From contig CAZRGC010000003.1 in assembly GCA_964599625.1 (NCBI GenBank), forward strand, positions 97,759 through 161,758: 64,000 nucleotides of DNA. The letters are read 5' to 3'. The position numbers were made by a program, and so were the translations under genes. The notes below the pieces were generated by a model. That model searched no databases, was not told where the DNA came from, and saw only the letters and a list, made by a program, of their open reading frames with translations. Source of the DNA: an uncultured Gammaproteobacteria bacterium (GTDB taxonomy: Bacteria; Patescibacteriota; Microgenomatia; UBA8517). Shown here in pieces: positions 1,346-37,265 of this stretch; within the stretch, counting starts at the first letter, position 1; each line of letters opens with the position of its first letter.

Positions 1346-1395
1346 ATTTCCCCATATGGTTTAAAATGAGATTTTCCTGATCACTTATAGATATT

Positions 1396-2013
1396 ATGGA
1401 CAAAAAAAATGACCCCGTAGGACATGGTTACGGAACAGATACCCAGAGAGTTATAGATACTTATGTTTCTAGTAGAGACATTGAAGAGTATAGAAGGAAC
1501 TTGGGTTTCGAAAACAAAGAATCTTTTTTAGCCAATATTCCCCAAGGTGCAGTACTGCTTGATATAGGTTCCGGTAACAATGAATTTTCCAGAAACATGA
1601 TGGATGTAAGACCTGACGTTAAGATATTTAACCTCAACCCCGCTTTGGCGGACAAAACAAATAGACTATTCAGCAAACGTTACAACAATTCCTCGAACGA
1701 TATAGCAGCAATTAATCCAGGGCTTCCTTACAAAGACGCTTCTTTTGATGTTGTTTTGGACTGCATGGCCAGTATTTACCGAGCAGATCCGATTTTTGGT
1801 ATGACGAGAGAGGAATCAAATTTACAAAAATTAAAGGAGGTTGTTAGGGTTCTTAAACCCAATGGCTTTGCAGCAGTGGGCCCCCTCTTGAGAGAAGACG
1901 AGATTGCAGAGTTAGTTGAGAATTCGAGACGCATTGGTGGTATTTCGGTTCAAAAAGCTAAAATTATCGAGCCTAACTTCCAAAGTTTTCATATCCGAAA
2001 ACTACCTCTTTGA
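1396..2013 (+). CDS. Class I SAM-dependent methyltransferase
   Basis: Motif I VLLDIGSGNN. Downstream acidic residue and FDVVLD motif. ..VLKPNGF.. motif III-like. Confidence 0.6.
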   Translation: MDKKNDPVGHGYGTDTQRVIDTYVSSRDIEEYRRNLGFENKESFLANIPQGAVLLDIGSGNNEFSRNMMDVRPDVKIFNLNPALADKTNRLFSKRYNNSSNDIAAINPGLPYKDASFDVVLDCMASIYRADPIFGMTREESNLQKLKEVVRVLKPNGFAAVGPLLREDEIAELVENSRRIGGISVQKAKIIEPNFQSFHIRKLPL

Positions 2014-2114
2014 ACTCAGCCTTGAGTTGTGGTAAAATACCCAAGATGAAAACAAGGTTTTCTCTGAAATGAGGCTACTTTGTTTAACATGACGAATAGT
2101 CTTTCAAGACAACT

Positions 2115-2384
2115 ATGGCACTAGCCAAAGATCACAAACAAGACATTATCAAGAAGTTTTCCCGCGAAAAGGGTGATACAGGTTCTCCTGAAGTTCAGGT
2201 TGCGCTTCTTACCATCCAAATTGAAAAACTCGTAGGGCATCTTAAGGAACACAAAAAGGACGTTCATTCCAGACGTGGACTTTTGTCCATGGTTGCCAAA
2301 AGGCGCAGGCTTTTGAACTATCTTAGAAGAAGAGATGAAGAAAGATACAAAAAGCTTATTGAGGAATTGAAATTAGAGAAGTAA
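2115..2384 (+). CDS. rpsO: 30S ribosomal protein S15
   Basis: 89 aa. [36 protein letters not shown] signature of S15. Confidence 0.92.
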
Positions 2385-2405
2385 AATACAAACAGTAGGT
2401 TTGAG

Positions 2406-2455
2406 GTTGAAGATGGTGTCCCGCAACGGCGGGACTTCAGAATACAACCTTCAAC
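2406..2455 (+). promoter_or_regulatory. rpsO-pnp intergenic stem-loop (perfect inner hairpin GTCCCGC-AACG-GCGGGAC with flanking GTTGAAG/CTTCAAC arms); candidate pnp leader / RNase III-type processing structure
   Basis: Inverted repeats read directly from the sequence. Not followed by a U-tract, so a leader structure is more likely than an intrinsic terminator. By analogy to the E. coli rpsO-pnp hairpin. Confidence 0.4.
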
Positions 2456-2470
2456 TTACCCCAGAATTAC

Positions 2471-4825: not shown

Positions 4826-4846
4826 TCTTCATTGCCTAAGATTTAG

Positions 4847-5929
4847 GTGATACACTGGAAAGGAATTTTTTTTAAATTTGTTATGGATACTGCCGCACAA
4901 GAAATAAACGTACTTATAGAAAAAGTTAAGGCCTCGGATATGCCCGACAAACTTCGTGAGAGAGTGATGGTAAGACTTAGTCAGTTGGCAAAACTTACAA
5001 ATTCCCCATCTTTTTTGCCAGAATTCGACAGCATGGTCAAATATATTGATTGGATAACAATTCTTCCTTGGAACAAAAGAACTAAAGATGTTTTGGATCT
5101 AGCTAACGCCGCAAAAATTTTGGAAGAACATCATTACGGATTGGCCGAGCTAAAAGAGAGAGTTTTGGAGTACATGAGTGTTATGAAACTTAAAACAGAG
5201 CGCGGAGAAAGTGCAGACATATATAGGGCCCCAATTCTTTGTTTTGTGGGACTTGTTGGTACAGGAAAGACAACGATCGCATATTCTATTGCCGAAGCTT
5301 TGGGACGCCCCATTGCCCGTATTCCTTTTGGAGGAATGGGAGACCCGCTTGATCTTCGTGGACAGTCTCGTATGCACCCCGAAGCAGAGCCGGGGAAGAT
5401 TATTAAAGCACTAAGAGACTGTCAGTCCAAAAATCCTGTCATACTTTTGGATGAAATCGACCGTGTCACAGAACAGGGTAGGGCTTCAATAATGGGTGTT
5501 TTGGTTGAGCTTTTGGACCCTAAACAGAATAAAGCTTTTACTGACCACTATTTAGATTTTCCAGTGGATTTATCCGAAGCATTGTTTATTGCGACAGCAA
5601 ACAACACAACCAATATAGCAACTGCTGTTATGGACAGAATCGAACCAATTTCCATGCCTTCATACTCAGATCAAGAAAAAATAGTAATTGCCAAAAAATA
5701 TATTCTGCCGCACGCGCTTAAAGCGTCAGGGCTTCCCGAGGGGTCTTTAACTATAGACGACGAAGTTTGGATTAATATTGTCCGTCCTTTGGGATTTGAT
5801 GCAGGTATCCGTACATTGGAAAGAAATATAGACGGCGTTGTGAGGAAAGTTGCAAGGTTAATGGTGGAAGGAAAAGCACAAACAGTAAGTGTTACCCCCC
5901 AGAACGTTAAACAATTCATGCCACAGTAA
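4847..5929 (+). CDS. Lon-family AAA+ ATPase module (no N-terminal LON domain, no S16 peptidase domain)
   Basis: ILPWNKRTKDVLDL..HYGLAELKERVLEYMSV, Walker A GLVGTGKTT, Walker B ILLDEIDRV. The ORF starts immediately after pnp and ends after the Lon alpha-helical lid (..GIRTLERNIDGVVRKVAR..). The downstream ORF has no Ser-Lys dyad peptidase motifs. Confidence 0.7.
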   Translation: MIHWKGIFFKFVMDTAAQEINVLIEKVKASDMPDKLRERVMVRLSQLAKLTNSPSFLPEFDSMVKYIDWITILPWNKRTKDVLDLANAAKILEEHHYGLAELKERVLEYMSVMKLKTERGESADIYRAPILCFVGLVGTGKTTIAYSIAEALGRPIARIPFGGMGDPLDLRGQSRMHPEAEPGKIIKALRDCQSKNPVILLDEIDRVTEQGRASIMGVLVELLDPKQNKAFTDHYLDFPVDLSEALFIATANNTTNIATAVMDRIEPISMPSYSDQEKIVIAKKYILPHALKASGLPEGSLTIDDEVWINIVRPLGFDAGIRTLERNIDGVVRKVARLMVEGKAQTVSVTPQNVKQFMPQ

Positions 5930-23023: not shown

Positions 23024-26000
23024 ATGGAACAAATGGCAGATCTAAAAAACTTAGCAGACTTTAAGAGTCTTTTGGTGCGTTTCGCGTCACCGGAAGAAAT
23101 CAGAGCTTGGAGCCGTGGAGAAATAACCAAACCCGAGACAATCAACTACAGAACCCTCAAGCCGGAGAAAGATGGACTTTTTGACGAAAGGATCTTTGGA
23201 CCTACAAAAGATTGGGAGTGTTATTGTGGTAAGTACAAGAGGATTAGATACAAAGGAGTTATTTGTGATAAATGTGGTGTCGAAGTCACCCAATCTCGTG
23301 TTAGACGCGAAAGAATGGGTCATATCACACTTGCTTCGCCGGTTGCACATGTCTGGTTCTTTAAAGGTGCACCTTCAAAGATCTCACTTCTTTTAGGGGT
23401 TGCTCCAAGAGGAATTGAACAAGTGGTCTATTTTGCAAGATATTTGGTCACTGAAGTAGACGAAGAGAAGAAGAAAGATGCCATGAAGAGCATTGAGAAT
23501 GCCAAGAATGAAAGACTCGACGAAATCGCAGAAGGTTTTAAATCCAGAAAAGATGCACTCAAGCAAGAAGAGAAAGAAGCTAAGGACAAAATATCTGCAA
23601 AAATCAAAGACAAAGAACAGGCGTCATTAGCCATAAGTGAAATCGAGCTTTCATTAAGAAAGAAAGAAGCTGCAGTAGGCGAAGAAGAAAAAGGTACTAT
23701 TTCCAAAACAGAACAGCTTTTTGAAAATCTTAACCTTGTAATTAAAAGCCTTAAACCTCTTAGTATTCTTTCTGAAGAAGAATACGATGAGCTTTATCAG
23801 CATGGTGCAGCAGATTTCTTTACAGCCAAAATGGGTGCTGACGCAGTATTGGAAGCCGTATCCAAACTTAATTTGGAAGAAATAGTCAAACCTTTGAGAG
23901 AAGAAATCACAACAATTAAGGGTGGAAGTAGCAAGTATGTGAAATTGGTTAAAAGACTCAAGCTTATAGAAGGACTCAAAAGAGCAAAGGTAAATCCTTC
24001 GTGGATGGTTCTTAAGGTTCTTCCGGTGCTTCCGCCAGACTTGAGACCAATGGTTCAACTTTCAGGCGGGAGATTTGCAACAAGCGATCTTAACGATCTT
24101 TATAGAAGAGTAATCAACAGAAACAACAGATTAAAACATCTTATTAGTCTTGGTGCCCCCGAAATTATCTTGAGAAACGAAAAGAGAATGTTGCAGGAAG
24201 CAGTCGACTCTTTGATTGATGCATCCCAAAGAAAGGCAACAAGAAAGTCCCGAGGTAGACAACCATTAAGGTCGCTTTCCGACATGCTTCGTGGTAAACA
24301 GGGAAGATTCAGACAAAACCTTTTGGGTAAACGTGTCGACTATTCCGGCAGGAGCGTCATCATCGTCGGACCCGAACTCAAACTCACTCAGTGCGGACTT
24401 CCCAAAGATATGGCTCTTGAAATGTTTAAGCCTTTTGTTCTTCGTGAAATGATTGCCAGAGGAATTGCACCCAACGTAAAAAGTGCCAAAAACATGCTCG
24501 AAAGACGACCTCCCGAGGTGTTTGATATTTTGGAAGAAATCACCAAAGATCATCCTGTGCTTTTGAATCGTGCGCCAACTTTGCACAAACTTTCAATTCA
24601 GGCTTTTTATCCTGTTCTTATTGAAGGGAGCGCAATAAGACTTCATCCTGCAGTTTGTAGCGGATTTAACGCAGACTTTGACGGAGACCAGATGGCTGTA
24701 CACGTTCCACTTTCAAAACAGGCTATCGAAGAGGCCAGAGCCTTGATGCTTCCATCCAACAACTTGCTTAGACCTGCTGACGGATCTCCTGTTGCCACCC
24801 CTTCGTCTAAAGAAATTGCTTTGGGCGCTTATTATCTCACCAGTGATGACGACAGAATTCCGATGGGTGAAACTGTTTTTTCAGACAAAGACGAAGCCAT
24901 ATATGCATATCAGTGTGGACGAATTGAGGTAAGGCAAAAAATAAACGTTTATATGAGTGGCAAAATAGTTACAACAACAGTTGGAAGAATTCTTTTCAAC
25001 GAAGTTTTGCCAGAGAACTTTGATTATGTGAACGAGGCGGCGACATCATCGCTCATCAAGGGACTATTCGTAAAAGCTTATGCCACAGTATCCAAAGATA
25101 GAGTTGTTCAAATGGTAGACGACATTAAAGACCTCGGATTTTTGGGAGGGACAATGTCTGGTATATCTTTTGGAGTGTTTGATGCCAAAGTCTATCCCGG
25201 AAAAGCAGATGTTCTTAAAGAAGCAGATGCAAAAGTTGCCGAAATCGAAGACAACTTTGATCAGGGGCTTATCACAGCAGAAGAGAAAAAGCGCCTTACT
25301 CAGGAAGTTTGGATCGACGTTTCTGAGGACTTGGCAGACAAGACTTGGAACGAAATGGAGCCCACAAACCCAATTAGGGTTGTTATTGATGCAAAAGTAG
25401 GTCGTGCAAGCAAAGATCAAGTTAAACAGCTTGCAGCCATCCGCGGACTTGTTGTTGACCCGCTTGGAAAAATCGTTGAACTTCCTATTAAGTCCAACTT
25501 CAGGGAAGGACTTTCGATATTTGAATATGTTACATCATCTCGTGGTTCCAGAAAGGGTCTTACCGATACAGCTATCAAAACCGCCGACGCAGGTTATCTT
25601 ACACGCCGTTTGGTAGACGTTGCTCATGACGTGATCATTAGACTCGAAGATTGTGAAGCCAAAGAAGGACTAATCATTAAAAGAGACATCAGGACACCGG
25701 CATTTTATGCCAGAATCCTTGGAAGGTTTGCAGCAAAAGATGTTGTAGGGAAAGATGGGAAGAAAGTTTTGGTTCCCGCCGGCGAGCTTATTGACGAAGA
25801 AAAAGCAAAAATGATCGACGAAAGTGGAATTTCAGAACTTACTTTGAGATCTCCTCTGGAGTGCAGGGCCAGATATGGAATGTGTGCCAAGTGTTACGGA
25901 TGGGATTTGGGTACCAAGAAAGTTGTTGATTTGGGAATGCCTGTGGGAGTTGTTGCTGCACAATCAATCGGAGAGCCTGGAACCCAGCTAACACTTCGTA

Positions 26001-26743
26001 CTAAACACGCAGCTGGTGTGGTTGGAGTAGACGTTACACAAGGTCTTCCTAGGGTTGAAGAACTTGTGGAATCAAGAATTCCCAAAGTTGTGTCTGCACT
26101 TTCAGAAATCGCAGGCAAAGTCAGAGTTGGTGAAGCAGAAGAAGGTTGGACTGTTACCGTTGTTAGCAAGGGTACTCCCAAAGAAGAGAAGTCATACATT
26201 ATTCCAAAGACCTTGGAACTGGCAGTGGGAGATGGAGATCTTATAGACTCGGGTACACCTTTGGCCAAAGGACCGCTTGATATCAAAGATGTTCTTTCTA
26301 TAAAAGGGCTGAGAGCTGCTCAGGAATATTTGGTAAACGAAATCCAAAGAGTCTATGAATCTCAGGGAATTCCCATTAATGACAAACACTTTGAGGTAAT
26401 TGTCCGAAAGATGAGTGATGAAGTAAGGATTGTTACAACAGGAGACACTCCTTTCCTTCCGGGAGAGCTTACAAGTCGTGCAGTATTTGAAGAAGAAAAC
26501 GAAAAAGTTTTGGCAGCGGGTGGGGAACCTGCAAGCGCACAACAAGTTGTCTTGGGAATTACCAGAAGGGCTTTGTACACAGACAGCTGGCTTTCGGCAG
26601 CATCTTTTGAACAGACAACAGATGTTCTTACGGAGGCTTCACTCTTGGGCCGAGAAGACAGGCTTATTGGACTCAAGGAAAACGTTATCATCGGAAGACT
26701 TATTCCGGTTTCCCCAGAACGGGCCGCCTTGCCTCAGAAGTAA
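23024..26743 (+). CDS. rpoC: DNA-directed RNA polymerase subunit beta'
   Basis: 1239 aa. Zn finger CxxC..CxxC near the N-terminus, NADFDGD catalytic motif. Confidence 0.97.
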   Translation: MEQMADLKNLADFKSLLVRFASPEEIRAWSRGEITKPETINYRTLKPEKDGLFDERIFGPTKDWECYCGKYKRIRYKGVICDKCGVEVTQSRVRRERMGHITLASPVAHVWFFKGAPSKISLLLGVAPRGIEQVVYFARYLVTEVDEEKKKDAMKSIENAKNERLDEIAEGFKSRKDALKQEEKEAKDKISAKIKDKEQASLAISEIELSLRKKEAAVGEEEKGTISKTEQLFENLNLVIKSLKPLSILSEEEYDELYQHGAADFFTAKMGADAVLEAVSKLNLEEIVKPLREEITTIKGGSSKYVKLVKRLKLIEGLKRAKVNPSWMVLKVLPVLPPDLRPMVQLSGGRFATSDLNDLYRRVINRNNRLKHLISLGAPEIILRNEKRMLQEAVDSLIDASQRKATRKSRGRQPLRSLSDMLRGKQGRFRQNLLGKRVDYSGRSVIIVGPELKLTQCGLPKDMALEMFKPFVLREMIARGIAPNVKSAKNMLERRPPEVFDILEEITKDHPVLLNRAPTLHKLSIQAFYPVLIEGSAIRLHPAVCSGFNADFDGDQMAVHVPLSKQAIEEARALMLPSNNLLRPADGSPVATPSSKEIALGAYYLTSDDDRIPMGETVFSDKDEAIYAYQCGRIEVRQKINVYMSGKIVTTTVGRILFNEVLPENFDYVNEAATSSLIKGLFVKAYATVSKDRVVQMVDDIKDLGFLGGTMSGISFGVFDAKVYPGKADVLKEADAKVAEIEDNFDQGLITAEEKKRLTQEVWIDVSEDLADKTWNEMEPTNPIRVVIDAKVGRASKDQVKQLAAIRGLVVDPLGKIVELPIKSNFREGLSIFEYVTSSRGSRKGLTDTAIKTADAGYLTRRLVDVAHDVIIRLEDCEAKEGLIIKRDIRTPAFYARILGRFAAKDVVGKDGKKVLVPAGELIDEEKAKMIDESGISELTLRSPLECRARYGMCAKCYGWDLGTKKVVDLGMPVGVVAAQSIGEPGTQLTLRTKHAAGVVGVDVTQGLPRVEELVESRIPKVVSALSEIAGKVRVGEAEEGWTVTVVSKGTPKEEKSYIIPKTLELAVGDGDLIDSGTPLAKGPLDIKDVLSIKGLRAAQEYLVNEIQRVYESQGIPINDKHFEVIVRKMSDEVRIVTTGDTPFLPGELTSRAVFEEENEKVLAAGGEPASAQQVVLGITRRALYTDSWLSAASFEQTTDVLTEASLLGREDRLIGLKENVIIGRLIPVSPERAALPQK

Positions 26744-26789
26744 GGTAGATGATACAATACAGCCTTGAATTAACCTAAACCGATTTATT

Positions 26790-27215
26790 ATGCCAACAAT
26801 TAACCAACTTACCAGGAAAGGTAGAAAAAGAGTTATTAAGAAAATGAAAACTACTTCTCTCAAGAAGTGGTTTAACGCTAAAGAAAGAAGTTTCAAAGAA
26901 AACCCTTCGGCTTTCAAAAGAGGGGTGGTTTTGGCTGTGCGTACTATGACTCCCAGAAAACCAAATTCGGCTCTTCGAAAAGTTGCCAGGGTTAGGCTTT
27001 CCAACAAGCAGGAAGTTACAGCTTATATTCCAGGTGAAGGGCACGAACTCGCCGAGCATTCTATCGTATTGGTCCGAGGAGGGCGTGTTAAGGATTTGGC
27101 CGGGGTTAAATATCATGTAGTTCGTGGAAAGTTTGACACAACCGGTGTTACTGGAAGAATTAACGGTCGAAGCAAATATGGAGCAAAGATGAATCAAAAA
27201 GCAGCAACTAAATAA
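26790..27215 (+). CDS. rpsL: 30S ribosomal protein S12
   Basis: [17 protein letters not shown] signature. Confidence 0.95.
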
Positions 27216-27217
27216 AT

Positions 27218-27697
27218 ATGTCACGAAAAGGACAGTTCAGAAGAATAAAAGCACAGCCCGACCCGGTTTACGGAAGTTTCCTTATTTCCAAGCTCATCAA
27301 CAGGGCAATGTTTGATGGCAAAAAGTCTGTTGCCAGAAAAGAAATATATAGCGCGCTCGAGATCATAAGAGAAAAGATGGGCGAAGATCCGGTTAAAGTC
27401 TTCGACAGAGCAATGGAAAATATTAAGCCTGTGATGGAAGTCAGACCCAGACGTGTAGGAGGAGCTGCCTATCAGGTTCCTCAACAGGTCAGAGGTGATA
27501 GGCGTGAATCTTTGGGAATAAGGTGGTTGGTTGCAGCAGCAAATTCAAAATCCAACTCCGAATTCAAGACATTTGGTCACAAAATGGCCCAAGAAATAAT
27601 GGACGCGGCAAAGGGCGAAGGGGCGTCTGTCAAAAAGAGACAGGATGTCGAACGTGTTGCCGAAGCCAACAAAGCCTTCAGCCATTTTAGATGGTAA
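27218..27697 (+). CDS. rpsG: 30S ribosomal protein S7
   Basis: Typical S7 sequence (..KFINRAMFDGKKS..AMENIKPVMEVR..). Confidence 0.95.
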   Translation: MSRKGQFRRIKAQPDPVYGSFLISKLINRAMFDGKKSVARKEIYSALEIIREKMGEDPVKVFDRAMENIKPVMEVRPRRVGGAAYQVPQQVRGDRRESLGIRWLVAAANSKSNSEFKTFGHKMAQEIMDAAKGEGASVKKRQDVERVAEANKAFSHFRW

Positions 27698-27731
27698 ATA
27701 TGGTTTGTCACTCAAGGTGATAATATAAAAC

Positions 27732-28511
27732 ATGTCTGGCCCCGATTCCCCTTTTCACTCAGACTCAAGTGTTTTCGAAACAAAAAACTCTCATATAGAC
27801 ACCCCTTTAGAGACAGTAATAAAAGCGGATTATTGGGCCAATTCACATTATCCTCAAATGTGGATAGCAAAACGCCTGGTTACAACGCACGCAGCTTTGG
27901 AACAGGTGCTTGCGGGAAAGTTGTTGTGGAGTGATTTTTCCACATCACAACTCCCCGACGTTTTTATTGAACCCCATATGAAAGAAAAGGCAAATAAAGC
28001 ACATGCTGCATATGGGCAACCTGCAATAATGGATCGTGATCTTAACAACCTGTGGAGGTCTGATGTAAGTGATGTATCAAATACACTTTGGAATTTGCTG
28101 CCCGACAAGGGAGACCCGTTGGAAATCCAAGACGTAACAATTGCCAAAGCCTTGAAAGACCCAAAAAATAAACAGTTTTTTGGGTCGTTGTTGGGTGTAT
28201 TGGCGGCAGAGAAGTCGGCCTTGGAAAGCCAGGAGTGCCTGGAGATATCAAAAGACCTGCGTGAGTCATTAAGAGACCTTCATCATAAAAAATTTGACCG
28301 CGGGTATAGTTTTTCTTTAAAGGAACAAGCTGACTTAAGGGTCAGATGGAACGCTATTTCAGACCGTCTCGAGTCTGTTTTGCAGCGGGAGCTTTCAAAG
28401 GCCAATCAAAAAGCAAAACTGATGCTTAACGATAGCCAATTGGAGTTTCTAACGCATCAAATCCATGTTGGTTCGAGAGTTGTGGCCAGTACGCCGATGG
28501 AGTCTTTTTGA
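27732..28511 (+). CDS. Hypothetical protein inserted between rpsG and fusA
   Basis: 259-aa ORF with no recognisable motifs. Occupies the position where fusA normally follows rpsG directly. Confidence 0.5.
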   Translation: MSGPDSPFHSDSSVFETKNSHIDTPLETVIKADYWANSHYPQMWIAKRLVTTHAALEQVLAGKLLWSDFSTSQLPDVFIEPHMKEKANKAHAAYGQPAIMDRDLNNLWRSDVSDVSNTLWNLLPDKGDPLEIQDVTIAKALKDPKNKQFFGSLLGVLAAEKSALESQECLEISKDLRESLRDLHHKKFDRGYSFSLKEQADLRVRWNAISDRLESVLQRELSKANQKAKLMLNDSQLEFLTHQIHVGSRVVASTPMESF

Positions 28512-28591
28512 TTCATATTGAGCTTTGGAGTTTTAACTGATAAAATCACTTTTGCTTCCGATAGGGAGTTTTTTGTTTGGATCTTACTTAA

Positions 28592-30763
28592 ATGGCAGAA
28601 GTTGCAAAGAAAAAGGCAAGTATTGTTATGACGGCCACCAAGGACCGTGTAGTTTCCTATGAAAAAATTAGAAACATAGGAATTATTGCCCACATCGACG
28701 CAGGAAAAACTACAACAACAGAGAGGCTTCTTTATGAAACAGGCAGGACCTACAAATTGGGGAGTGTCGATGATGGAACCACAGTTACAGATTGGATGGC
28801 CCAAGAAAGGGAGCGTGGGATCACAATTGTTTCTGCTGCAATCACCGCTTTTTGGGACCTTAAAACAGATTCGTCTGTAGAAGCTGGTCATTACAGAATT
28901 AACCTTATTGATACACCAGGCCACATCGACTTTACTGCAGAGGTAGAAAGAAGTTTGAGAGTTCTAGACGGTGCTGTAATGGTATTTGATGGAAGGACAG
29001 GTGTTGAGTCCCAATCCGAAACAGTTTGGAGACAGGCAGATAAATACAACGTCCCAAGAATTTGTGTTCTAAATAAACTCAACTTGATTGGAGCTGACTT
29101 TGAAAGCTCAATCCAATCAATCAGAGAAAGACTCAAGGCAAATGCATCCCCGGTAGTAGTTCCAATTGGTCAAGAACACGACCACAGAGGTGTTGTGAAC
29201 CTTATTACAATGAAAGCTTTGACATTCAAAGCTATCGAAGACCACGAACTTACAGAAGGAGAAATTCCTGCAGAAGTTGCCGACATGGCCCAAAAATACA
29301 GAGCCGAACTAATTGAAAAGGTTTCAGAATTTGACGACGAAGCTCTTAACATGTTTTTGGAAGGAAAAGAACCGGATGAAATAACTCTTAAGCGGGCAAT
29401 CAGAAAAGGAGTTATTGCCGGCAAGTTCTTCCCCGTATTTGGTGGAGACAACAGAACTGCAGAAAGCCAGTTGCTTTTGAACGGGGTTGTGGAATTTTTG
29501 CCGTCTCCAATCGACGTTCCACCTGTGGTCGGTTCAAATCCCAAGACCGGAGAAGAAGAAAAAAGAGAAAGAAAGAACGAAGCTCCGCTTTCCGCTTTGG
29601 CATTCAAGGTTATCACGGATCCTCATGTAGGACGATTGGTTTATATGAGAGTTTATTCCGGAACACTCAAAACAGGACAAGAAGTCTATAACTCATCCAA
29701 ACAAAAATACGAAAGAATTGGAAAACTGGTTCTTTTGCACGCTGACCAAAGAGAGCTTATTGAAGAAGCATTCGCAGGAGAAATTGTTGCGGTTGTCGGT
29801 GTAAAAGATACTTCTACAGGTGATACGGTTTGTGATTCGGATCATCCAATATTCTTGGAGTCAATTTCGTTCCCAGAACCTGTCATATCACTGGCAATCG
29901 AACCCGCAACCAAATCTGATCAAGAAAAAATGGGAATTGCCCTTTCCAAGCTTTCGGACGAAGATCCAACCTTTAGAATCAAAAGCAATCCCGAGACAGG
30001 GCAGACAATTATCTCCGGTATGGGTGAGTTGCAGCTAGAGGTTTTGGTAGACCGTATGAAACGGGAATTCAATGTTGTCGCTAATACCGGTGCTCCGCAG
30101 GTTGCGTACAAAGAAACAATCAAAAAATCAGGCGATGGAGAAGGAAAATACATCAGACAAACAGGAGGACGCGGACAGTATGGACACTGTCTCCTTAGAC
30201 TTGAACCTTTGGGCAGGGGTGAGGGTTTTGAATTCAAGAGTGAAATCAAAGGAGGGGCAATTCCACAAGAATACATTGGGCCAATCGAAAAAGGTGTCAA
30301 AGAAAAGATGGAGAATGGAGTTTTGGCGGGCTTTCCTATGGTTGACATGAGAGTTGTCGTTTATGACGGATCATTCCACGAAGTTGACTCTTCTGAAATG
30401 GCCTTCAAGATTGCAGGATCGATGGCTCTTGAGGATGGTTTCAAAAAATCAGATCCGGGACTTTTGGAGCCCATAATGAAGATAGAGGTTTTCACCCCAG
30501 GTGAATTCATGGGAGATGTCATAGGAGACCTTTCTAGTAAACGTGCACAAATTTCAGGGTCCGAAGAAAAAGCGGGAGAAACAGTTATCTACGGCAGTGT
30601 TCCTTTGGCCGAGCTTTCTGGTTATGCAACCAAACTTAGGTCGTTGACTCAGGGTCGTGCCAGGGCCTATGTGGAGCCGTCACACTATGACGACGTTCCT
30701 TCGCATATAGCCGCGCAGGTTATAGAAAAGGCAGGTAAAGTTACAATGGCCAGGGGCCAGTAA
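28592..30763 (+). CDS. fusA: Elongation factor G
   Basis: G domain AHIDAGKTT, DTPGHIDF, NKLN. Full five-domain length (723 aa). Confidence 0.95.
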   Translation: MAEVAKKKASIVMTATKDRVVSYEKIRNIGIIAHIDAGKTTTTERLLYETGRTYKLGSVDDGTTVTDWMAQERERGITIVSAAITAFWDLKTDSSVEAGHYRINLIDTPGHIDFTAEVERSLRVLDGAVMVFDGRTGVESQSETVWRQADKYNVPRICVLNKLNLIGADFESSIQSIRERLKANASPVVVPIGQEHDHRGVVNLITMKALTFKAIEDHELTEGEIPAEVADMAQKYRAELIEKVSEFDDEALNMFLEGKEPDEITLKRAIRKGVIAGKFFPVFGGDNRTAESQLLLNGVVEFLPSPIDVPPVVGSNPKTGEEEKRERKNEAPLSALAFKVITDPHVGRLVYMRVYSGTLKTGQEVYNSSKQKYERIGKLVLLHADQRELIEEAFAGEIVAVVGVKDTSTGDTVCDSDHPIFLESISFPEPVISLAIEPATKSDQEKMGIALSKLSDEDPTFRIKSNPETGQTIISGMGELQLEVLVDRMKREFNVVANTGAPQVAYKETIKKSGDGEGKYIRQTGGRGQYGHCLLRLEPLGRGEGFEFKSEIKGGAIPQEYIGPIEKGVKEKMENGVLAGFPMVDMRVVVYDGSFHEVDSSEMAFKIAGSMALEDGFKKSDPGLLEPIMKIEVFTPGEFMGDVIGDLSSKRAQISGSEEKAGETVIYGSVPLAELSGYATKLRSLTQGRARAYVEPSHYDDVPSHIAAQVIEKAGKVTMARGQ

Positions 30764-30805
30764 AGTATTTGACTTAAAAACCCCGCGGTGTAAACTGAAT
30801 TAAGT

Positions 30806-31600
30806 ATGAATTTCTTTAAGAAAGTTGCTTCTAGTGTTTATTCCCCGGAGTTCTATTCCCAAATACCCAAAATGACACTTGGTTCTGTGTTGGGTTATTT
30901 TTTCTTGCTGCTTCTAGTGGTCGAACTTGTCATGTTTGGCAAAAGCATGCCGGAGTTTATGTTTGGTTTCTCAGGAAAGATAAAATCTACAATAAGCGAG
31001 GTTATCGACACTTATCCCAGTAATTTGGTTTTGACAATCAAAGATGGAGCGCTTTCCACCAATGTTAAGGAGCCTTACTACCTTATGGATAAAACCAACA
31101 ACAAGTTCGCGGTTATAGACACAAAAACTGCATACTCTGCCGATCAATTTAAAAAGTACAACGTACCGGTCTGGGTTACCAAAGATACTGTTTTTTACCA
31201 AGACAGCGACCAAATCAAGAGCAATAGTTTTGTAGAGATGAAAGATATGGTGGTAAACAAAGAACTTGTAAACAGTTTTTCTGCCAAAATATCTCCCTGG
31301 ATTCCATATTTTGGCCCTGTTGTTATGATTTTTGCACTCGTAACTCTTTACGCCCTCCAATCTTTCAGACTGGTTTATGGGTTTTTCCTTGCACTTTTAA
31401 TTTTGCTGGTTGCCAAAATGACCAAGAAAAGTCTGACGTATAAAGAATCTTACAAAGTAGGGATATTTGCCATGACACTACCCTTTATTTTAGAAGCGCT
31501 TAATACCTATATCGGTTGGAAGGCTTTTCCGTTCACTTTTACTATAATTGCACTTATTGTTGTTGGCGTAAATTTTGCAGGATCCAACTCGAAGAAGTAG
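30806..31600 (+). CDS. Hypothetical integral membrane protein inserted between fusA and tuf
   Basis: 264 aa with hydrophobic helices at the N- and C-termini (..LGYFFLLLLVVELVMF.., ..VMIFALVTLYAL.., ..IIALIVVGVNF..). Confidence 0.5.
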   Translation: MNFFKKVASSVYSPEFYSQIPKMTLGSVLGYFFLLLLVVELVMFGKSMPEFMFGFSGKIKSTISEVIDTYPSNLVLTIKDGALSTNVKEPYYLMDKTNNKFAVIDTKTAYSADQFKKYNVPVWVTKDTVFYQDSDQIKSNSFVEMKDMVVNKELVNSFSAKISPWIPYFGPVVMIFALVTLYALQSFRLVYGFFLALLILLVAKMTKKSLTYKESYKVGIFAMTLPFILEALNTYIGWKAFPFTFTIIALIVVGVNFAGSNSKK

Positions 31601-31610
31601 AATATTCCTA

Positions 31611-31640
31611 TTGACAGCTTTATTTAGGCTCAATTATAAT
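31611..31640 (+). promoter_or_regulatory. Putative sigma70-type promoter upstream of tuf (TTGACA-18nt-TATAAT)
   Basis: Consensus hexamers at 31611-31616 and 31635-31640. Confidence 0.55.
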
Positions 31641-31754
31641 TGCTCTAGGTAATTAGATTTCTTAGAGAAATCATAATAACTTTGGAGGCTAAATATGCCT
31701 CTTGTTTTTTGAAAGACAGTTATTTATACTAGCATTTCGGTAAAATTAAAAAAA

Positions 31755-32945
31755 ATGGCAGACGCAAAACAAAAATTTGATCGCAGCAAACCACACGTAA
31801 ACATTGGTACTATTGGTCACGTTGATCACGGAAAGACAACCTTGACCTCTGCTATCACCATGGTTCTTGCCAAGCAAGGACTCGCCACAGCTAAGAAATA
31901 CGAAGACATCGATTCAGCCCCAGAAGAGAAAGAAAGAGGAGTTACAATCAACCTTTCTCACCAAGAATACCAAACAGCAAAAAGACACTATGCTCATATT
32001 GACGCTCCTGGCCATGCCGACTATATCAAGAACATGATTACCGGTGCAGCACAAATGGACGGAGCAATTCTGGTTGTTTCCGCAGCAGACGGACCCATGC
32101 CTCAGACAAGAGAACACGTTATTTTGGCCAGACAGGTTAACGTGCCAGCTTTGGTAGTTTTCCTCAACAAATGTGATACAGTTGATGATCCAGAAATTAT
32201 CGACTTGGTAGAAGCAGACGTAAGAGAACTTCTCAAAAAATACGAATACCCAGGAGATGAAGTTCCTGTAATTCGAGGTTCCGCTCTCAAAGCAGTCGAA
32301 GGCGACGCAGAAGCAGAAAAGAAGATCACAGAGCTCATGGATGCAGTAGACAGCTACATCCCTGATCCTGTAAGACAAACAGATAAACCTTTCTTAATGC
32401 CTGTTGAAGACGTATTTACAATTTCAGGACGCGGAACAGTTGTTACAGGTAGAGTAGAACGCGGAGTTATCAAAGTTAACGAAGAAATTGAAATAGTTGG
32501 TATCAAAGACACAGCAAAGTCAGTTGTCACAGGTCTTGAGATGTTCAGGAAGACTTTGGACGAGGCTATGGCAGGTGACAACGTTGGAGTTCTTCTAAGA
32601 GGTGTAGAAAAAGATCAAGTAGAAAGAGGACAAGTTCTCGCAAAGTCGGGAAGTGTTACTCCGCACACAGAATTTGAAGCAGAAGTTTATATTCTTTCAA
32701 AGGAAGAAGGAGGAAGACACACGCCTTTCTTTACAGGTTACAAACCTCAGTTTTATATTAGGACTGCAGATGTAACAGGAGAAGCAACACTCCCCGAAGG
32801 AATCGAAATGGTTATGCCTGGCGACAACGCTAAGATGAAAGTCAAACTTATTCAGCCAGTAGCTCTCGAGGAAGGTCTTAGGTTTGCAATCAGAGAAGGC
32901 GGACACACAGTAGGTGCAGGAGTTATCACCAAGGTACTTGTATAA
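31755..32945 (+). CDS. tuf: Elongation factor Tu
   Basis: [22 protein letters not shown]. 396 aa. Confidence 0.97.
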
Positions 32946-32985
32946 CCGCTAAAAGCTTTCACGCTTCTAGCTCTTTCATAAGGAT

Positions 32986-33291
32986 ATGGCAATTAGACTA
33001 AGAGTCAAACTTAAAAGTTATGACCACAGGGTCTTAGATGAAGCAGCCGGTAAAATTATAGATACCGCGCTATCATCTGGTGCAAAAATTGTCGGTCCTA
33101 TTCCTCTCCCCACAAACCGCAGCGTAATGGCAATCAAAGAATCACCATTTACGGACAAAGACGCTCAGGAACACTTTGAAGTTCTAACCCACAAAAGACT
33201 TATTGATATTTTGGACCCAACCCCCAGAACTGTTGATTCTTTGGGCAACCTCGACCTCCCTGCGGGAGTTTCTATCGAGATTAAGATGTAA
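32986..33291 (+). CDS. rpsJ: 30S ribosomal protein S10
   Basis: [34 protein letters not shown]-like signature. Confidence 0.95.
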
Positions 33292-33318
33292 GGCCTCTTG
33301 TTCGACCAAACCCCATAG

Positions 33319-33346
33319 TTGGAATAACTGAACTACCTGATATAAT
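33319..33346 (+). promoter_or_regulatory. Island promoter P1 (CCCATAGTTGGAA-16nt-TATAAT)
   Basis: TTGGAA 33319-33324, TATAAT 33341-33346. Shares the CCCATAGTT(T/G)G upstream motif with P2-P4. Confidence 0.5.
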
Positions 33347-33392
33347 GCCAATGTCTGAATTAAGTTAGATCTTTGTACAATCAAAAAGGAAT

Positions 33393-33701
33393 TTGACTAT
33401 GGATCCGATAAGAGTAGTTGTTGCAGTGGATGGCGACAAGGCAAAGTTCCACACCACTTTTCCGTTGGACGTGTATTTACCAGGACGACAAAAAAGGTCT
33501 GAAAAAGGCCAGGAGCTGGTAAACAAGTTGAAAGAGGTCAAGGGTATTAAAAACGAAGAGTTGGATATCTGGATCTACGAATATGAAATTTCGGCCAATA
33601 AGCTACACGCCTTTAAATGGAAGGATGAGGTCGCACCTGCTGTAGTTGAGGTTCTCAAGACCTTTTACAATCTCGGCACAGTCGAAATTGTATACGAATA
33701 A
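33393..33701 (+). CDS. Island ORF1, hypothetical protein (102 aa)
   Basis: ORF with its own promoter and downstream terminator. No recognisable motifs. Confidence 0.5.
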   Translation: MTMDPIRVVVAVDGDKAKFHTTFPLDVYLPGRQKRSEKGQELVNKLKEVKGIKNEELDIWIYEYEISANKLHAFKWKDEVAPAVVEVLKTFYNLGTVEIVYE

Positions 33702-33734
33702 TACCCTGTCCGAATATCTGTTGTGTTAGTTTTT

Positions 33735-33771
33735 GCTCCGCTTTGTGGAAATTTCCCGGGCGGAGTTTTTT
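33735..33771 (+). terminator. Rho-independent terminator, repeat-module copy 1 (GCTCCGC-loop-GCGGAG + TTTTTTGTGGC)
   Basis: 6-7-bp GC stem, 18-nt loop, T6 tract. Confidence 0.6.
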
Positions 33772-33793
33772 GTGGCCAACATTAGTCCCATAG

Positions 33794-33823
33794 TTGGATT
33801 TATGGTGGTTAATCTGCTAGAAT
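33794..33823 (+). promoter_or_regulatory. Island promoter P2 (CCCATAGTTGGAT-18nt-TAGAAT)
   Basis: Hexamers at 33794-33799 and 33818-33823. GGAGG RBS before the ATG at 33867. Confidence 0.45.
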
Positions 33824-33866
33824 CCGCTAGCACGTTGAATTATTACAGAACGTCCTTGGAGGAACA

Positions 33867-35015
33867 ATGATTCTTGGACTGAAATTAACTGTCGAAAACG
33901 ACGATATTGTCGACATTGGCGGAGATTTGTACGTCAAAAACTCCAAAGCCATGAAGCGTCTTCACAGGGAGCTTCGCTACCTGGGATACCAAATCGACAA
34001 CTTGCGGCACGATAAATACCGCTTGGACAAGGGAGCCACCCCGCGCGAAATGGAAAAAGGTGGTTGGTCGCTTTGGTTTGCCAAGTTACCCAATATCAGA
34101 CGTGGTGTCTGTGGAAGCTGTGGAGCAACCATTTCCACTCTCGGCATTCAGTCACACGGCCACAAATGCGAGAGGTGCGGCGAAGTGACCTACTGGGAAA
34201 TGGTGGAAGGATCAGTAATCCGGTTCGTCTTTTTGCAAAAAGAGGGCCGTGGAATGTGGGATCCCGAGCTTAAGATGAAAGTGCACCATTGGGATACGCG
34301 TGAAGGGCTTTTATATCTTTACCCGGAAGCCTTGGAAGGTGGCCTTTCGACTGTGACGGGAGATACAGCACGGCAGTACTTGGGCAATAACCACGAAAAG
34401 TGGAATGTAGTCACGATCGATGGCCAAAAAATTATCGTGATCAAGTACCCCAAGCAGTGGCGGCGCGATACGGCTGTTATCGAACCTTATGAGATTTACG
34501 GTCATCAGTGGAATCACAAGATCGTCAAAATCTACAAAGGTAAACATTACAGTGACTGGGACCGGCTCCCTGTTCCCGAGACATTTTCTATCTACGAAAC
34601 CTGGCACTGGGACAAGCTTGTGGCTTCGCCAACATTGCACAGGCGTGTATTGCAGGCTGTTCACAACACCGATGACAAGGGTTGGCACTACCAAGACGGT
34701 CGTCCCTGGTTTAGAGAAGGAAGCTGGAAGGGCATGGCAAAGTTTATTCGCCATTTTACAGCCCTTGATGCTGATGCCTTTGACCGAGCCTGGCCACGTT
34801 TCAGAAACGACGGTCCCGGCGGGATCGACGACTTGGCACACTTCTGTCACCCCAAAGCCATCACTCGTGATGAGCCAAACATAGGTAATGTTCTTGTTGC
34901 CATGGGGAAACGCATGGAAAATAAGTCTCTCACGCGCGATGAGATCGAAGCAGCCAAACGCGGCTTGAGCGATCCATTGACGGGTGATTTTTTACGTTCC
35001 CTGCGTAAGCGTTAG
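33867..35015 (+). CDS. Island ORF2, hypothetical Trp/His-rich protein with a Cys4 zinc ribbon (382 aa)
   Basis: CGSCG...HKCERCG cluster. Many W/H/Y residues. Higher local GC by eye. No family motif recognised. Confidence 0.55.
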   Translation: MILGLKLTVENDDIVDIGGDLYVKNSKAMKRLHRELRYLGYQIDNLRHDKYRLDKGATPREMEKGGWSLWFAKLPNIRRGVCGSCGATISTLGIQSHGHKCERCGEVTYWEMVEGSVIRFVFLQKEGRGMWDPELKMKVHHWDTREGLLYLYPEALEGGLSTVTGDTARQYLGNNHEKWNVVTIDGQKIIVIKYPKQWRRDTAVIEPYEIYGHQWNHKIVKIYKGKHYSDWDRLPVPETFSIYETWHWDKLVASPTLHRRVLQAVHNTDDKGWHYQDGRPWFREGSWKGMAKFIRHFTALDADAFDRAWPRFRNDGPGGIDDLAHFCHPKAITRDEPNIGNVLVAMGKRMENKSLTRDEIEAAKRGLSDPLTGDFLRSLRKR

Positions 35016-35028
35016 TTTTGGAGTCTCA

Positions 35029-35066
35029 CTCCGCCTTGTGGAAATTTCCCGGGCGGAGTTTTTTGT
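35029..35066 (+). terminator. Rho-independent terminator, repeat-module copy 2 (CTCCGCC-loop-GGCGGAG + TTTTTTGTGGC)
   Basis: 7-bp stem, 16-nt loop, T6 tract. Confidence 0.65.
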
Positions 35067-35087
35067 GGCTAAAATAAGCCCCATAGT

Positions 35088-35116
35088 TTGACATAACTTT
35101 GAACCTTTGATATATT
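35088..35116 (+). promoter_or_regulatory. Island promoter P3 (CCCATAGTTTGACA-17nt-TATATT)
   Basis: TTGACA 35088-35093, TATATT 35111-35116. Confidence 0.55.
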
Positions 35117-35156
35117 CACAAGGTTTATTTGCACATTATGGTTAAAAGGAGAGACT

Positions 35157-35660
35157 ATGGGAATTACCCATGCAGAGGGTGTTGACTTGCAAGAGTGGGC
35201 GAATGCTCACAAACCGGATGATGACTTGATTTACAGGGATGGTTATTGGCATCAAATCATCTTTGTCCGGGATCGCTTGCCACAGCCGCTTTTTGGCTCA
35301 TACGAAGAGTACAAAGCCAATCCGGTACGCGTGGTGGGTGATCATACAAGCAAATCAGTACTCCTTCCTGTTTACAGTATCAAATTTGCTCCTCTCGAAA
35401 TTCGGATGCGTTACAACTTTTACGACTGGAAAGTGAGTGTGGTATCTCAAGTTCCCATCAGGTCGAACTTTTACCCGTTCCTTTTTAGAGATGAAGCTGT
35501 GCACCCGGTTTATTTTGAGGGTTTTACCAATGACTGGGTTTTTGGCTCCTACTCTGCCGACAACACCAAATTTTCTGTTGAAATTAGCAACGAACACATG
35601 TTGTTCGCTTTCATGGCTATTTTAGCGGGTGATTTGGGCTTGGGAGGCAATAAGAAGTAG
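35157..35660 (+). CDS. Island ORF3, hypothetical protein (167 aa)
   Basis: GAGAG RBS. No recognisable motifs. Confidence 0.5.
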   Translation: MGITHAEGVDLQEWANAHKPDDDLIYRDGYWHQIIFVRDRLPQPLFGSYEEYKANPVRVVGDHTSKSVLLPVYSIKFAPLEIRMRYNFYDWKVSVVSQVPIRSNFYPFLFRDEAVHPVYFEGFTNDWVFGSYSADNTKFSVEISNEHMLFAFMAILAGDLGLGGNKK

Positions 35661-35672
35661 TTTGGAGCTCAA

Positions 35673-35710
35673 CTCCGCTTTGTGGAAATTTCCCGAGCGG
35701 AGTTTTTTGT
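35673..35710 (+). terminator. Rho-independent terminator, repeat-module copy 3 (CTCCGC-loop-GCGGAG + TTTTTTGTGGC)
   Basis: 6-bp stem, 18-nt loop, T6 tract. Confidence 0.6.
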
Positions 35711-35731
35711 GGCAAAAACAAGTCCCATAGT

Positions 35732-35761
35732 TTGACAAAGCCTCGAATATGGTTTTATAAT
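35732..35761 (+). promoter_or_regulatory. Island promoter P4 (CCCATAGTTTGACA-18nt-TATAAT)
   Basis: TTGACA 35732-35737, TATAAT 35756-35761. Confidence 0.55.
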
Positions 35762-35804
35762 CATCTGTTGTCAGAAATTTGTACTTTACAAAAAATAGCT
35801 TGGC

Positions 35805-35846
35805 AGGCAGCTTTTTACCCGTAAAATTTATGGTTGAAAAGCTGCC
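35805..35846 (+). promoter_or_regulatory. 10-bp stem-loop in the 5' UTR of island ORF4 (GGCAGCTTTT ... AAAAGCTGCC)
   Basis: Perfect inverted repeat with a 22-nt loop, about 75 nt upstream of the ORF4 ATG. Confidence 0.4.
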
Positions 35847-35922
35847 TACGGATGATAGTGAGGCGTATGGGAGCACTCCTAAAACAAAAACCAAATAAAA
35901 ATTAGAAAGTAACAGGAGCAAA

Positions 35923-36300
35923 ATGTCTCAATCTCAAAAGCGCGTTTCCGAACGCGAGGTACCCGAAGTCAATCCCAACAAGAGGTTTTTCCCAGACTTT
36001 CCTCTTTGCAACGACACGGCTACCCACACAAGCTATTCATACAGGAACAAGAAGGATGTCGGTGAAAAGGGTGTCGCCTTGGTAGAGGCTGTTTTGGCAA
36101 TCCACGGCGTGATCGATCTGACGATCTCAAAGAATGAACTTCGGGTCGTCAAACAACCTGCCCACACCTGGGAAGAGGTTACACCTTTGATCCACAATGC
36201 TTTCAGGCATGTTTACGGCGACGATATCAAATTTATCGGAGAAAACAAGGCTATTTTGGCCTACAGACGTCTCCGAGTTGCCATGAACGTGGCTAAGTAA
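35923..36300 (+). CDS. Island ORF4, hypothetical protein (125 aa)
   Basis: AGGAG RBS. No recognisable motifs. Confidence 0.5.
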   Translation: MSQSQKRVSEREVPEVNPNKRFFPDFPLCNDTATHTSYSYRNKKDVGEKGVALVEAVLAIHGVIDLTISKNELRVVKQPAHTWEEVTPLIHNAFRHVYGDDIKFIGENKAILAYRRLRVAMNVAK

Positions 36301-36393: not shown

Positions 36394-36539
36394 TCCGAAT
36401 AACAAATATGGTGGTTACAATGTTTGCTCAACCACGCTAAGTTAGTCTTTGGCAGATGCCTCACTGGCGCCTTCCGAAGGCGCTTTTTTGTTTAATGTCC
36501 TTCGACTCGCAAGAGCTCGCTCTAGGATCCAAAACAAAT

Positions 36540-37265
36540 ATGATCAACACAATTTTAGGTTCCAAGCTGAAAAACAGTCAAACCTTCTTGCAAGGGTTTA
36601 GGATTCCCGTGACCAAAATCATGGCAGGCCCCTGTACAGTCACTCAAATTAAGAAAATGGACAAAGATGGATATTGGGCAGTTCAGATCGGATTCGGTAC
36701 CAGACGCACCAAAGTTACTTCAAAAGCACTCCAAGGACACCTCAAACTAACAGCAAAAGAAAACCTTTTCCCCAGACATCTTAGAGAAATAAGATTAACA
36801 GAAGAACCCGAGTTTAAAGTAGGCGATACAATAAATGTCGCCGATATTTTTGCTGCAGGGGACGTTGTTGCTGTCACTGGGGTTTCCAAAGGCAAGGGAT
36901 TTGCCGGCGTTGTCAAAAGGCACGGTTTTCGTGGAGGACCCAGAACTCATGGACAATCTGACCGCGAACGCGCACCCGGATCAATCGGACAAACAACAAC
37001 ACCAGGCAGGGTCTACAGAGGCAAAAGAATGGCAGGAAGAATGGGTGGCGAACAAATAACCATCAAAAATTTGCATGTGGTATCAGTGAATGCAGACACC
37101 GGCGAGGTGGAAATTTCAGGACAGGTTCCGGGATCCGTTGGAACACTTCTTTCAATCAAAAAGATCAAAGCAGGCAGTCTTAAAGATTTGGAACACGAAA
37201 CAGTTGCTCAGGTAGTAGAAGGAGAAGGTGCTAAGGTTGCAGGTTCGGCACCAAAATCAGAATAA
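36540..37265 (+). CDS. rplC: 50S ribosomal protein L3
   Basis: L3 signature (..GVSKGKGFAGVVKRHGF.GGP..HG). Start placed at ATG 36540; the longer ORF-track start at 36456 would read through the leader hairpins. Confidence 0.9.
   Translation: MINTILGSKLKNSQTFLQGFRIPVTKIMAGPCTVTQIKKMDKDGYWAVQIGFGTRRTKVTSKALQGHLKLTAKENLFPRHLREIRLTEEPEFKVGDTINVADIFAAGDVVAVTGVSKGKGFAGVVKRHGFRGGPRTHGQSDRERAPGSIGQTTTPGRVYRGKRMAGRMGGEQITIKNLHVVSVNADTGEVEISGQVPGSVGTLLSIKKIKAGSLKDLEHETVAQVVEGEGAKVAGSAPKSE

Follow-up and report, generated by a model that had tools for sequence, protein, structure and literature searches.

In Gammaproteobacteria, small multigene insertions separate conserved translation operons, as bfd-bfr-hopD does the str and S10 operons of Salmonella, and unit boundaries have been argued to tolerate insertions if a promoter is supplied for the downstream genes (Brandis et al. 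2019, PMC6735719). In Bacillus subtilis, YbxF (RulS), an alternative L7Ae-like protein, is a K-turn binding factor (PMC10221552). Here, we analyze a 64-kilobase (kb) stretch of DNA, referred to as the window, from the compact genome of a Patescibacteria (Ca. Woesebacteria) bacterium with almost all genes on one strand. The window carries a gene of 259 amino acids (aa), X259, between rpsG and fusA in the str operon. Like YbxF, X259 appears to be a non-essential, lineage-restricted accessory gene in the rpoC-rpsL-rpsG-fusA-tuf neighborhood, where YbxF is co-expressed with translation genes. However, YbxF is a small α/β RNA-binding protein of the L7Ae fold with a Pfam family, whereas X259 is an acidic protein of 259 residues, predicted to be all-α, without a family match. 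The YbxF gene lies between rpoC and rpsL and precedes rpsL, whereas X259 follows rpsG. The gammaproteobacterial inserts and X259 have in common that unrelated, non-mobile genes occupy boundaries of the rpoBC-str-S10 supercluster, in the case of X259 with a promoter-like element for fusA. The former are located between operons, whereas X259 lies inside the classical str operon, and in a patescibacterium. On balance, X259 is probably an accessory, dispensable gene and the last cistron of an rpsL-rpsG-X unit (X designates X259 and its relatives), encoding a partner-binding protein whose residence at this site would be explained mainly by insertion into a permissive, strongly transcribed boundary.

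Comparison with its closest relatives identifies X259 as a genuine protein-coding gene under purifying selection. A word-indexed search of 5.8 billion protein clusters returned only three close relatives, at 97, 81, and 73% identity, all exactly 259 aa long and without insertions or deletions (indels) relative to X259. Every contig carrying a close ortholog, each from an independent assembly, has the order rpsL-rpsG-X-fusA, followed by DUF1189, tuf, and rpsJ where the contig is long enough. Between X259 and its closest relative, the synonymous rate (dS) is an unsaturated 0.11, and the ratio of nonsynonymous to synonymous rates (dN/dS) is 0.12. For the two more distant orthologs, the proportion of nonsynonymous differences (pN) is 0.12–0.18, and synonymous sites are saturated (pS 0.74–0.81). 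The same frame, length, and position in the orthologs, together with the low dN/dS, make X259 more than a chance open reading frame (ORF). Its nonsynonymous rate is 4–6 times that of rpsG and fusA and approximately equal to that of DUF1189, a rate that fits an ordinary non-core protein and not a decaying ORF. The features that define the X259 junction are as follows.

26790–27215, + strand: rpsL (ribosomal protein S12), the first gene of the unit (ORF; the L001 and L005 orthologs carry PF00164)
27218–27697, + strand: rpsG (ribosomal protein S7; Pfam Ribosomal_S7, E = 2.7e-54)
27714–27720, + strand: Shine-Dalgarno (SD)-like AAGGTGA, 11 nucleotides (nt) before the X259 ATG (read from the sequence; role inferred)
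27732–28511, + strand: X259, 259 aa, ATG start (ORF, orthologs, synteny, selection, remote family, AlphaFold model)
28518–28546, + strand: predicted extended -10 promoter-like element 5′ of fusA (promoter scan and conservation)
28554–28579, + strand: short hairpin GCTTCC-GATA-GGGAGT followed by TTTTTGTTTG, a putative weak terminator or leader hairpin (scan)
28592–30763, + strand: fusA (elongation factor G, EF-G; Pfam GTP_EFTU, EF-G_D2, EFG_III, EFG_IV, EFG_C)

X259 also has remote relatives. An exhaustive HMMER (hmmsearch) comparison of a four-sequence profile with 1.84 billion representatives yielded 13 clusters at E ≤ 1e-3, six of them at E ≤ 1e-10. Twelve further clusters (E = 3e-24 to 6e-4, mostly 237–287 aa) share 19–31% identity with X259, and an alignment of 15 sequences, termed A5, defines the family. 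In this alignment, the members share the motifs AD.WAN..YPQM, N.AH.AYG, and YRESLR, with residues N37, P41, Q42, and H91 invariant and R177 near-invariant. The family clusters are all singletons from metagenome assemblies. A word-indexed search with a broader alignment retrieved four proteins only and missed known members, making it unfit for counting the family. Taken together, the profile matches indicate a family that is real but rare, a small, previously undescribed group of predicted all-α proteins of ~250 aa found so far only in Woesebacteria-like Patescibacteria.

Two of the remote relatives occupy the same junction as X259. P0006 (31% identical) is found in the context rpoC-rpsL-rpsG-X-EF-G, and P0008 (25% identical) in the context rpoB-rpoC-rpsL-rpsG-X-fusA-tuf, without DUF1189. 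The hosts of P0006 and P0008 are closely related to the organism of the window. They encode EF-G, rpoC, and S7 proteins 84–91%, 77–86%, and 60–72% identical to those of the window, and in the host tree they share a long-branched clade with the GTDB species L009, L010, L011, and L013. In L009–L011, the nearest other species (EF-G 79–82% identical), X is absent, the rpsG-fusA gaps measure 33–56 nt, and the fusA-tuf gaps 95–111 nt. L013 also lacks X and carries 4.2 kb of unrelated genes (764–5000) in its rpsG-fusA junction. A broader profile found no X copy within 5 kb of fusA in 80 species-level loci. At least seven family members lie outside rpsG-fusA (P0004, P0005, P0007, P0009, P0010, P0011, and P0013). 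Specifically, P0005 is flanked by a sortase gene and by what may be a rho gene (its Pfam match is weak and partial), P0009 is located between TGT-like and TruB genes that are both on the opposite strand, and P0011 precedes a HicB-like ORF. P0004 (L089) has a tRNA-Gln(CTG) gene (425–496) 83 nt upstream and an adjoining Bro-N-domain gene on the opposite strand, surroundings that may represent a mobile-element neighborhood. The protein tree joins P0006 to the X259 clade (bootstrap 74) and pairs the str-located P0008 with the non-str P0005 (bootstrap 100). This topology implies at least one relocation.

The empty junctions of the sister species suggest that X is both old at the site and dispensable, and by this comparison X259 counts as an accessory that can be lost and not as part of the str core. 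In the history that we propose, X would have resided between rpsG and fusA since before the radiation of a family-level clade. It would have been kept in the window clade, L093, and L095, cleanly deleted in L009–L011, and replaced by other cargo in L013, and would lie elsewhere in the genome of more distant family members.

The spacers flanking X259 suggest how the gene is expressed. X259 is on the same strand as rpsG and separated from it by 34 nt, and the 80-nt spacer between X259 and fusA contains the promoter-like element and a weak hairpin with a T-run. This 80-nt spacer is ~86% identical among lineages with saturated synonymous sites. Its extended -10 element, TTGAGC-N17-TAAAAT with a TG one base before the -10 hexamer, is conserved in L001, L004, and L005. 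The pattern TTGAnn-N17(TG)-TAnAAT-CAC is also found 5′ of fusA in L093, L095, and L013, the last of which has other genes inserted in place of X. The element is absent from the empty junctions of L009–L011, which are too short to contain it, and across all 64 kb a loose form of the promoter pattern turns up just three times. Besides the window, L004, L001, and L093 have the hairpin and T-run, which L095 lacks; the consensus energy of the hairpin is only -3.8 kcal/mol. Further downstream, a predicted tuf promoter, TTGACA-N18-TATAAT, is kept in L001, L095, L009, L010, L011, and L013, with or without DUF1189. The promoter-like elements of fusA and tuf place the inserted genes at likely transcription-unit boundaries and not inside an indivisible operon. 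The simplest reading is that the str operon of this clade would comprise several units, rpsL-rpsG(-X), fusA(-DUF1189), and tuf.

Because the extended -10 element is conserved before fusA at every occupied junction, X looks like the last cistron of rpsL-rpsG-X. The promoter shared by all occupied junctions also favors ancestral occupancy with clean losses over repeated independent gains. X259 would thus be the third and last cistron of the transcript, translated from its own SD-like site, whose GGTG core is also conserved between rpsG and X in L004, L005, and L001. Co-transcription with rpsL and rpsG would make X259 dosage follow ribosomal protein synthesis, and the extended -10 promoter between X and fusA would drive fusA separately. 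This arrangement agrees with the expectation that genes inserted upstream of a strongly expressed one require a promoter behind them (PMC6735719).

Two smaller observations concern the same spacers. The rpsG-X spacer measures 34 nt in the window (27698–27731) versus 11 nt in L001 (9990–10000), and the extra window sequence (CACTCAAGGTGATAATATAA) resembles the rpsG 3′ end plus the L001 spacer (CATTTTAGGTGGTAATATAG), which points to a short tandem duplication that included the SD-like rpsG end. A 16-nt inverted repeat, 94% complementary, connects the 5′ coding region of X259 (27775–27790) with the T-run before fusA (28566–28581). The protein sequence encoded by its coding arm is not maintained in L001, and the repeat is therefore probably due to chance.

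X259 is predicted to be a soluble, mildly acidic protein (pI 6.06) with a single cysteine and no transmembrane or hydrophobic segment. It matches no family at E ≤ 1 in Pfam-A, NCBIfam, PHROGs, or PADLOC. The 15 family members have no consistent match in Pfam, and neither the 4- nor the 15-sequence profile matched any PDB sequence. The confidence of the AlphaFold model (pLDDT) rose from 74 with four sequences to 85.7 with the 15-sequence alignment (pTM 0.83). The model is all-α and consists of ten helices: a disordered tail of ~20 residues leads into an N-terminal helical domain (helices within res. 25–142), followed by a three-helix bundle (res. 144–227) and a final helix. The N-terminal helical domain is conserved, and the three-helix bundle is long. 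PDB fold matches to the model are limited to generic helical bundles. X259 probably binds a partner, either a protein or a small ligand, through a small invariant polar patch on this helical scaffold, which has no recognizable catalytic fold. A HEPN-like Rx4-6H motif near H91 was rejected because the arginine position is not conserved in the family alignment. X259 also does not qualify as a ribosome recycling factor (RRF), a group recognized by a three-helix-bundle domain I, an inserted α/β domain II, and a match to the RRF family.

The first-pass annotation of this DNA had reported a 259-aa ORF at 27732–28511 between rpsG and fusA, with no detectable motifs, and had proposed a synteny comparison and a structure prediction. 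The ORF list and the Pfam matches of the neighbors agree with its coordinates and description, and the searches of curated libraries agree on the motifs. The comparison shows that the position of X259 is kept in close orthologs and in two remote relatives, and the prediction gave a confident all-α model without a specific PDB fold match.

Several points weigh against the view of X259 as a partner-binding accessory protein inserted at a permissive boundary. The host tree is weakly resolved inside the clade (bootstraps 11–59), and repeated gains at the junction are an alternative to ancestral presence with losses, the history that the shared promoter favors. The co-transcription of X259 and the use of the fusA promoter are inferred from sequence alone. 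No covariation or compensatory changes were found in the weak hairpin 5′ of fusA, and we therefore claim nothing firm for it. The binding role is the default choice for a helical model that does not resemble an enzyme, and X259 could be an unrecognized all-α enzyme. Finally, retention at the junction despite divergence to 25–31% identity could reflect a functional tie to translation.

This last point leads to the strongest rival, in which X259 would be a lineage-specific translation accessory factor that binds the ribosome, S7/S12, or EF-G, with its str location ensuring stoichiometric co-expression. Such a protein might make up for the limited repertoire of ribosome biogenesis factors in Microgenomatia. 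Long retention at the rpsG-fusA junction and the tRNA- or translation-related neighbors of other family members speak for this proposal. However, the two observations together may amount to perhaps one independent insertion event, and translation-related neighbors are expected by chance in tiny genomes. We regard the proposal as possible but rather unlikely. Slightly more doubtful is its extension to the whole family as a Woesebacteria-specific translation factor with a fold not present in the PDB, made together with S12 and S7 and acting on the ribosome or EF-G, and possibly replacing ribosome biogenesis or translation factors lost in Microgenomatia. FusB/FusC-type EF-G-binding proteins offer a conceptual parallel only, as small accessory proteins acting on EF-G. 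FusB-type proteins combine a helical N-domain with a zinc-binding α/β C-terminal domain. X259 was rejected as a member of this group, with no sequence or fold match in Pfam or the PDB, one cysteine, and an all-α model.

How readily the junction accepts other genes bears on a second rival, which regards X259 as mobile-element cargo or as a defense or anti-defense gene. Of the 80 loci compared, 69 allowed both rpsG and fusA to be placed. Gaps of at least 200 nt, filled with unrelated ORFs, separate them in 14 of these 69 loci (~20%). By their titles, 11 of these 14 belong to Patescibacteria groups, and the loci titled as other phyla have gaps below 200 nt. The rpsG-fusA order thus varies far more in this phylum than had been assumed, which weakens the premise of the first-pass annotation that rpsL-rpsG-fusA-tuf is almost invariant. 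Its description of X259 and the membrane gene between fusA and tuf as lineage-specific insertions holds with qualifications. The empty junctions of L009–L011 and the restriction of DUF1189 to one clade agree with it. X259 is neither an orphan nor a recent insertion, having relatives at 19–31% identity, two of them at the same junction. HMM and hhalign comparisons revealed no distant relationship between X259 and the junction ORFs of other Patescibacteria.

The cargo at the junction includes a PIN-like/DUF433 toxin-antitoxin-type pair (DUF433/DUF5615, in L040), a 23S rRNA intervening sequence (23S-IVS) protein that is bAvd-like (in L033), and the 4.2-kb DUF559/ORF6N island of L013. The L013 island encodes a protein that combines multiple CxxC motifs with a DUF559/Vsr-like endonuclease domain, an ORF6N protein, a 172-aa ORF, and a 256-aa ORF without a Pfam match. 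These genes share the junction, the phylum, and the orientation of X259, which indicates that the site tolerates foreign ORFs. They are not homologs of X259, however, and belong to recognizable mobile or toxin-antitoxin-type families, unlike X259. The tRNA gene and Bro-N protein adjoining P0004, the HicB-like ORF after P0011, and the slightly atypical codon usage of X259 (GC content at third codon positions, GC3, 0.43; low synonymous-codon score) would also fit a mobile origin. On the other side, X259 has no match in PADLOC, PHROGs, IMG/VR (searched with alignment A1), or GenBank phages (tblastn). No integrase or transposase was found, and a search for flanking repeats or target-site duplications gave only short, chance-level matches. 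X259 has also remained at one site, without indels, through synonymous saturation. Mobile cargo or a defense function is therefore improbable.

Less credible still is a young orphan confined to the narrow clade with DUF1189, in which it would have arisen de novo or been inserted recently. Such an origin would account for the mere three close homologs among billions of clusters and for the empty sites in the nearest GTDB species. It would also fit the JGI metagenome contigs, in which neither alignment-derived patterns nor a back-translated WNLLPDKGDP pattern detected relatives. However, the exhaustive profile search recovered 12 remote relatives of similar length with shared motifs, two of which are found between rpsG and fusA in other lineages, and X is present in L095 without DUF1189. 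In addition, the confident AlphaFold model shows a well-packed structure, which sets X259 apart from typical de novo ORFs. We consider the young-orphan reading largely refuted by these comparisons.

The last rival, in which X259 would be a chance ORF, a pseudogene, or a piece of rpsG or fusA that was split off or mis-framed, draws only on its missing annotation and family matches. It is practically untenable and is refuted by the conserved frame and length under purifying selection. X259 has no similarity to EF-G, and its candidacy as an EF-G fragment was rejected; rpsG and fusA are full length with all domains complete, and X259 is thus not a displaced piece of a neighbor, an idea that the first-pass annotation had already found unsupported by the reading frames.

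The proposed insertion of X259 as a dispensable gene at a transcription-unit boundary has a counterpart further downstream in the window, where the remaining features of the region are found.

23024–26743, + strand: rpoC (ORF list)
30806–31600, + strand: DUF1189 membrane protein gene (Pfam DUF1189, E = 5.6e-34; obvious hydrophobic segments)
31611–31640, + strand: predicted consensus promoter TTGACA-N18-TATAAT 5′ of tuf (12/12 match)
31755–32945, + strand: tuf (elongation factor Tu, EF-Tu; ORF; the identical L005 protein carries PF00009, PF03144, and PF03143)
32986–33291, + strand: rpsJ (ORF list)

The DUF1189 match and the hydrophobic segments bear out the membrane gene that had been called between fusA and tuf. 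DUF1189 occupies this position only in the narrow X259 clade, and the corresponding spacers of L095 and L009–L013 measure 51–111 nt. Since DUF1189 is limited to the X259 clade and absent at the site in L095 and L009–L013, its insertion is placed later than that of X. From this distribution, DUF1189 appears to be inserted between fusA and the ancestral tuf promoter, in an event separate from and younger than the arrival of X. An Rfam scan of 26700–33400 gave no match.

The tuf leader (31611–31702) contains a GAGGC...GCCTC hairpin and a T-run after the promoter. Hairpins with a T-run, differing in their stems, are also present in L001 and L009–L011; the leader hairpin could be an attenuator or a stabilizing 5′ hairpin. 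The EF-G proteins of the clade carry a conserved N-terminal extension (MAEVAKKKASIVM...) before the usual start (window 28592–28660; L095 8815–8850), and by comparison the L095 EF-G gene call starts 12 codons too late. Beyond rpsJ, four ORFs of 102, 382, 167, and 125 aa (33393–36300) precede the next ribosomal gene (36456–37265, presumably rplC). The 382-aa ORF contains zinc-ribbon-like CxxC hints. GC3 in these ORFs is 0.50–0.57 versus 0.34–0.40 in their neighbors, and the synonymous-codon score is negative in three of the four (0.017 for the 167-aa ORF). L001 has different ORFs in its gap after rpsJ. By composition, the four ORFs resemble foreign DNA that entered the S10 operon recently. Several “binchicken”/SMAG metagenome-assembled genome records (L010, L017, L019, and others) carry Gammaproteobacteria, Pseudomonadales, or Vitreimonas in their titles. 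The EF-G and EF-Tu proteins that they encode are 58–86% identical to those of the window, and their gene order is Patescibacteria-like; the taxonomic labels of these records look unreliable.

X259 is a member of an uncharacterized family at a site that is unusual, though not exceptional for Patescibacteria. Even if it is a passenger, X259 shows that the most conserved bacterial gene order is porous in Patescibacteria, with insertions that lie at unit boundaries and come with a promoter for the gene that follows. It also shows that apparent orphans can be fast-diverging members of small families, visible only to exhaustive profile searches. Either way, alignment A5 defines a family absent from curated libraries. 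The ribosomes and ribosome biogenesis pathways of the host group are known to be reduced, and if X259 does act on translation, these bacteria would possess a factor specific to their lineage, with a fold not described so far.
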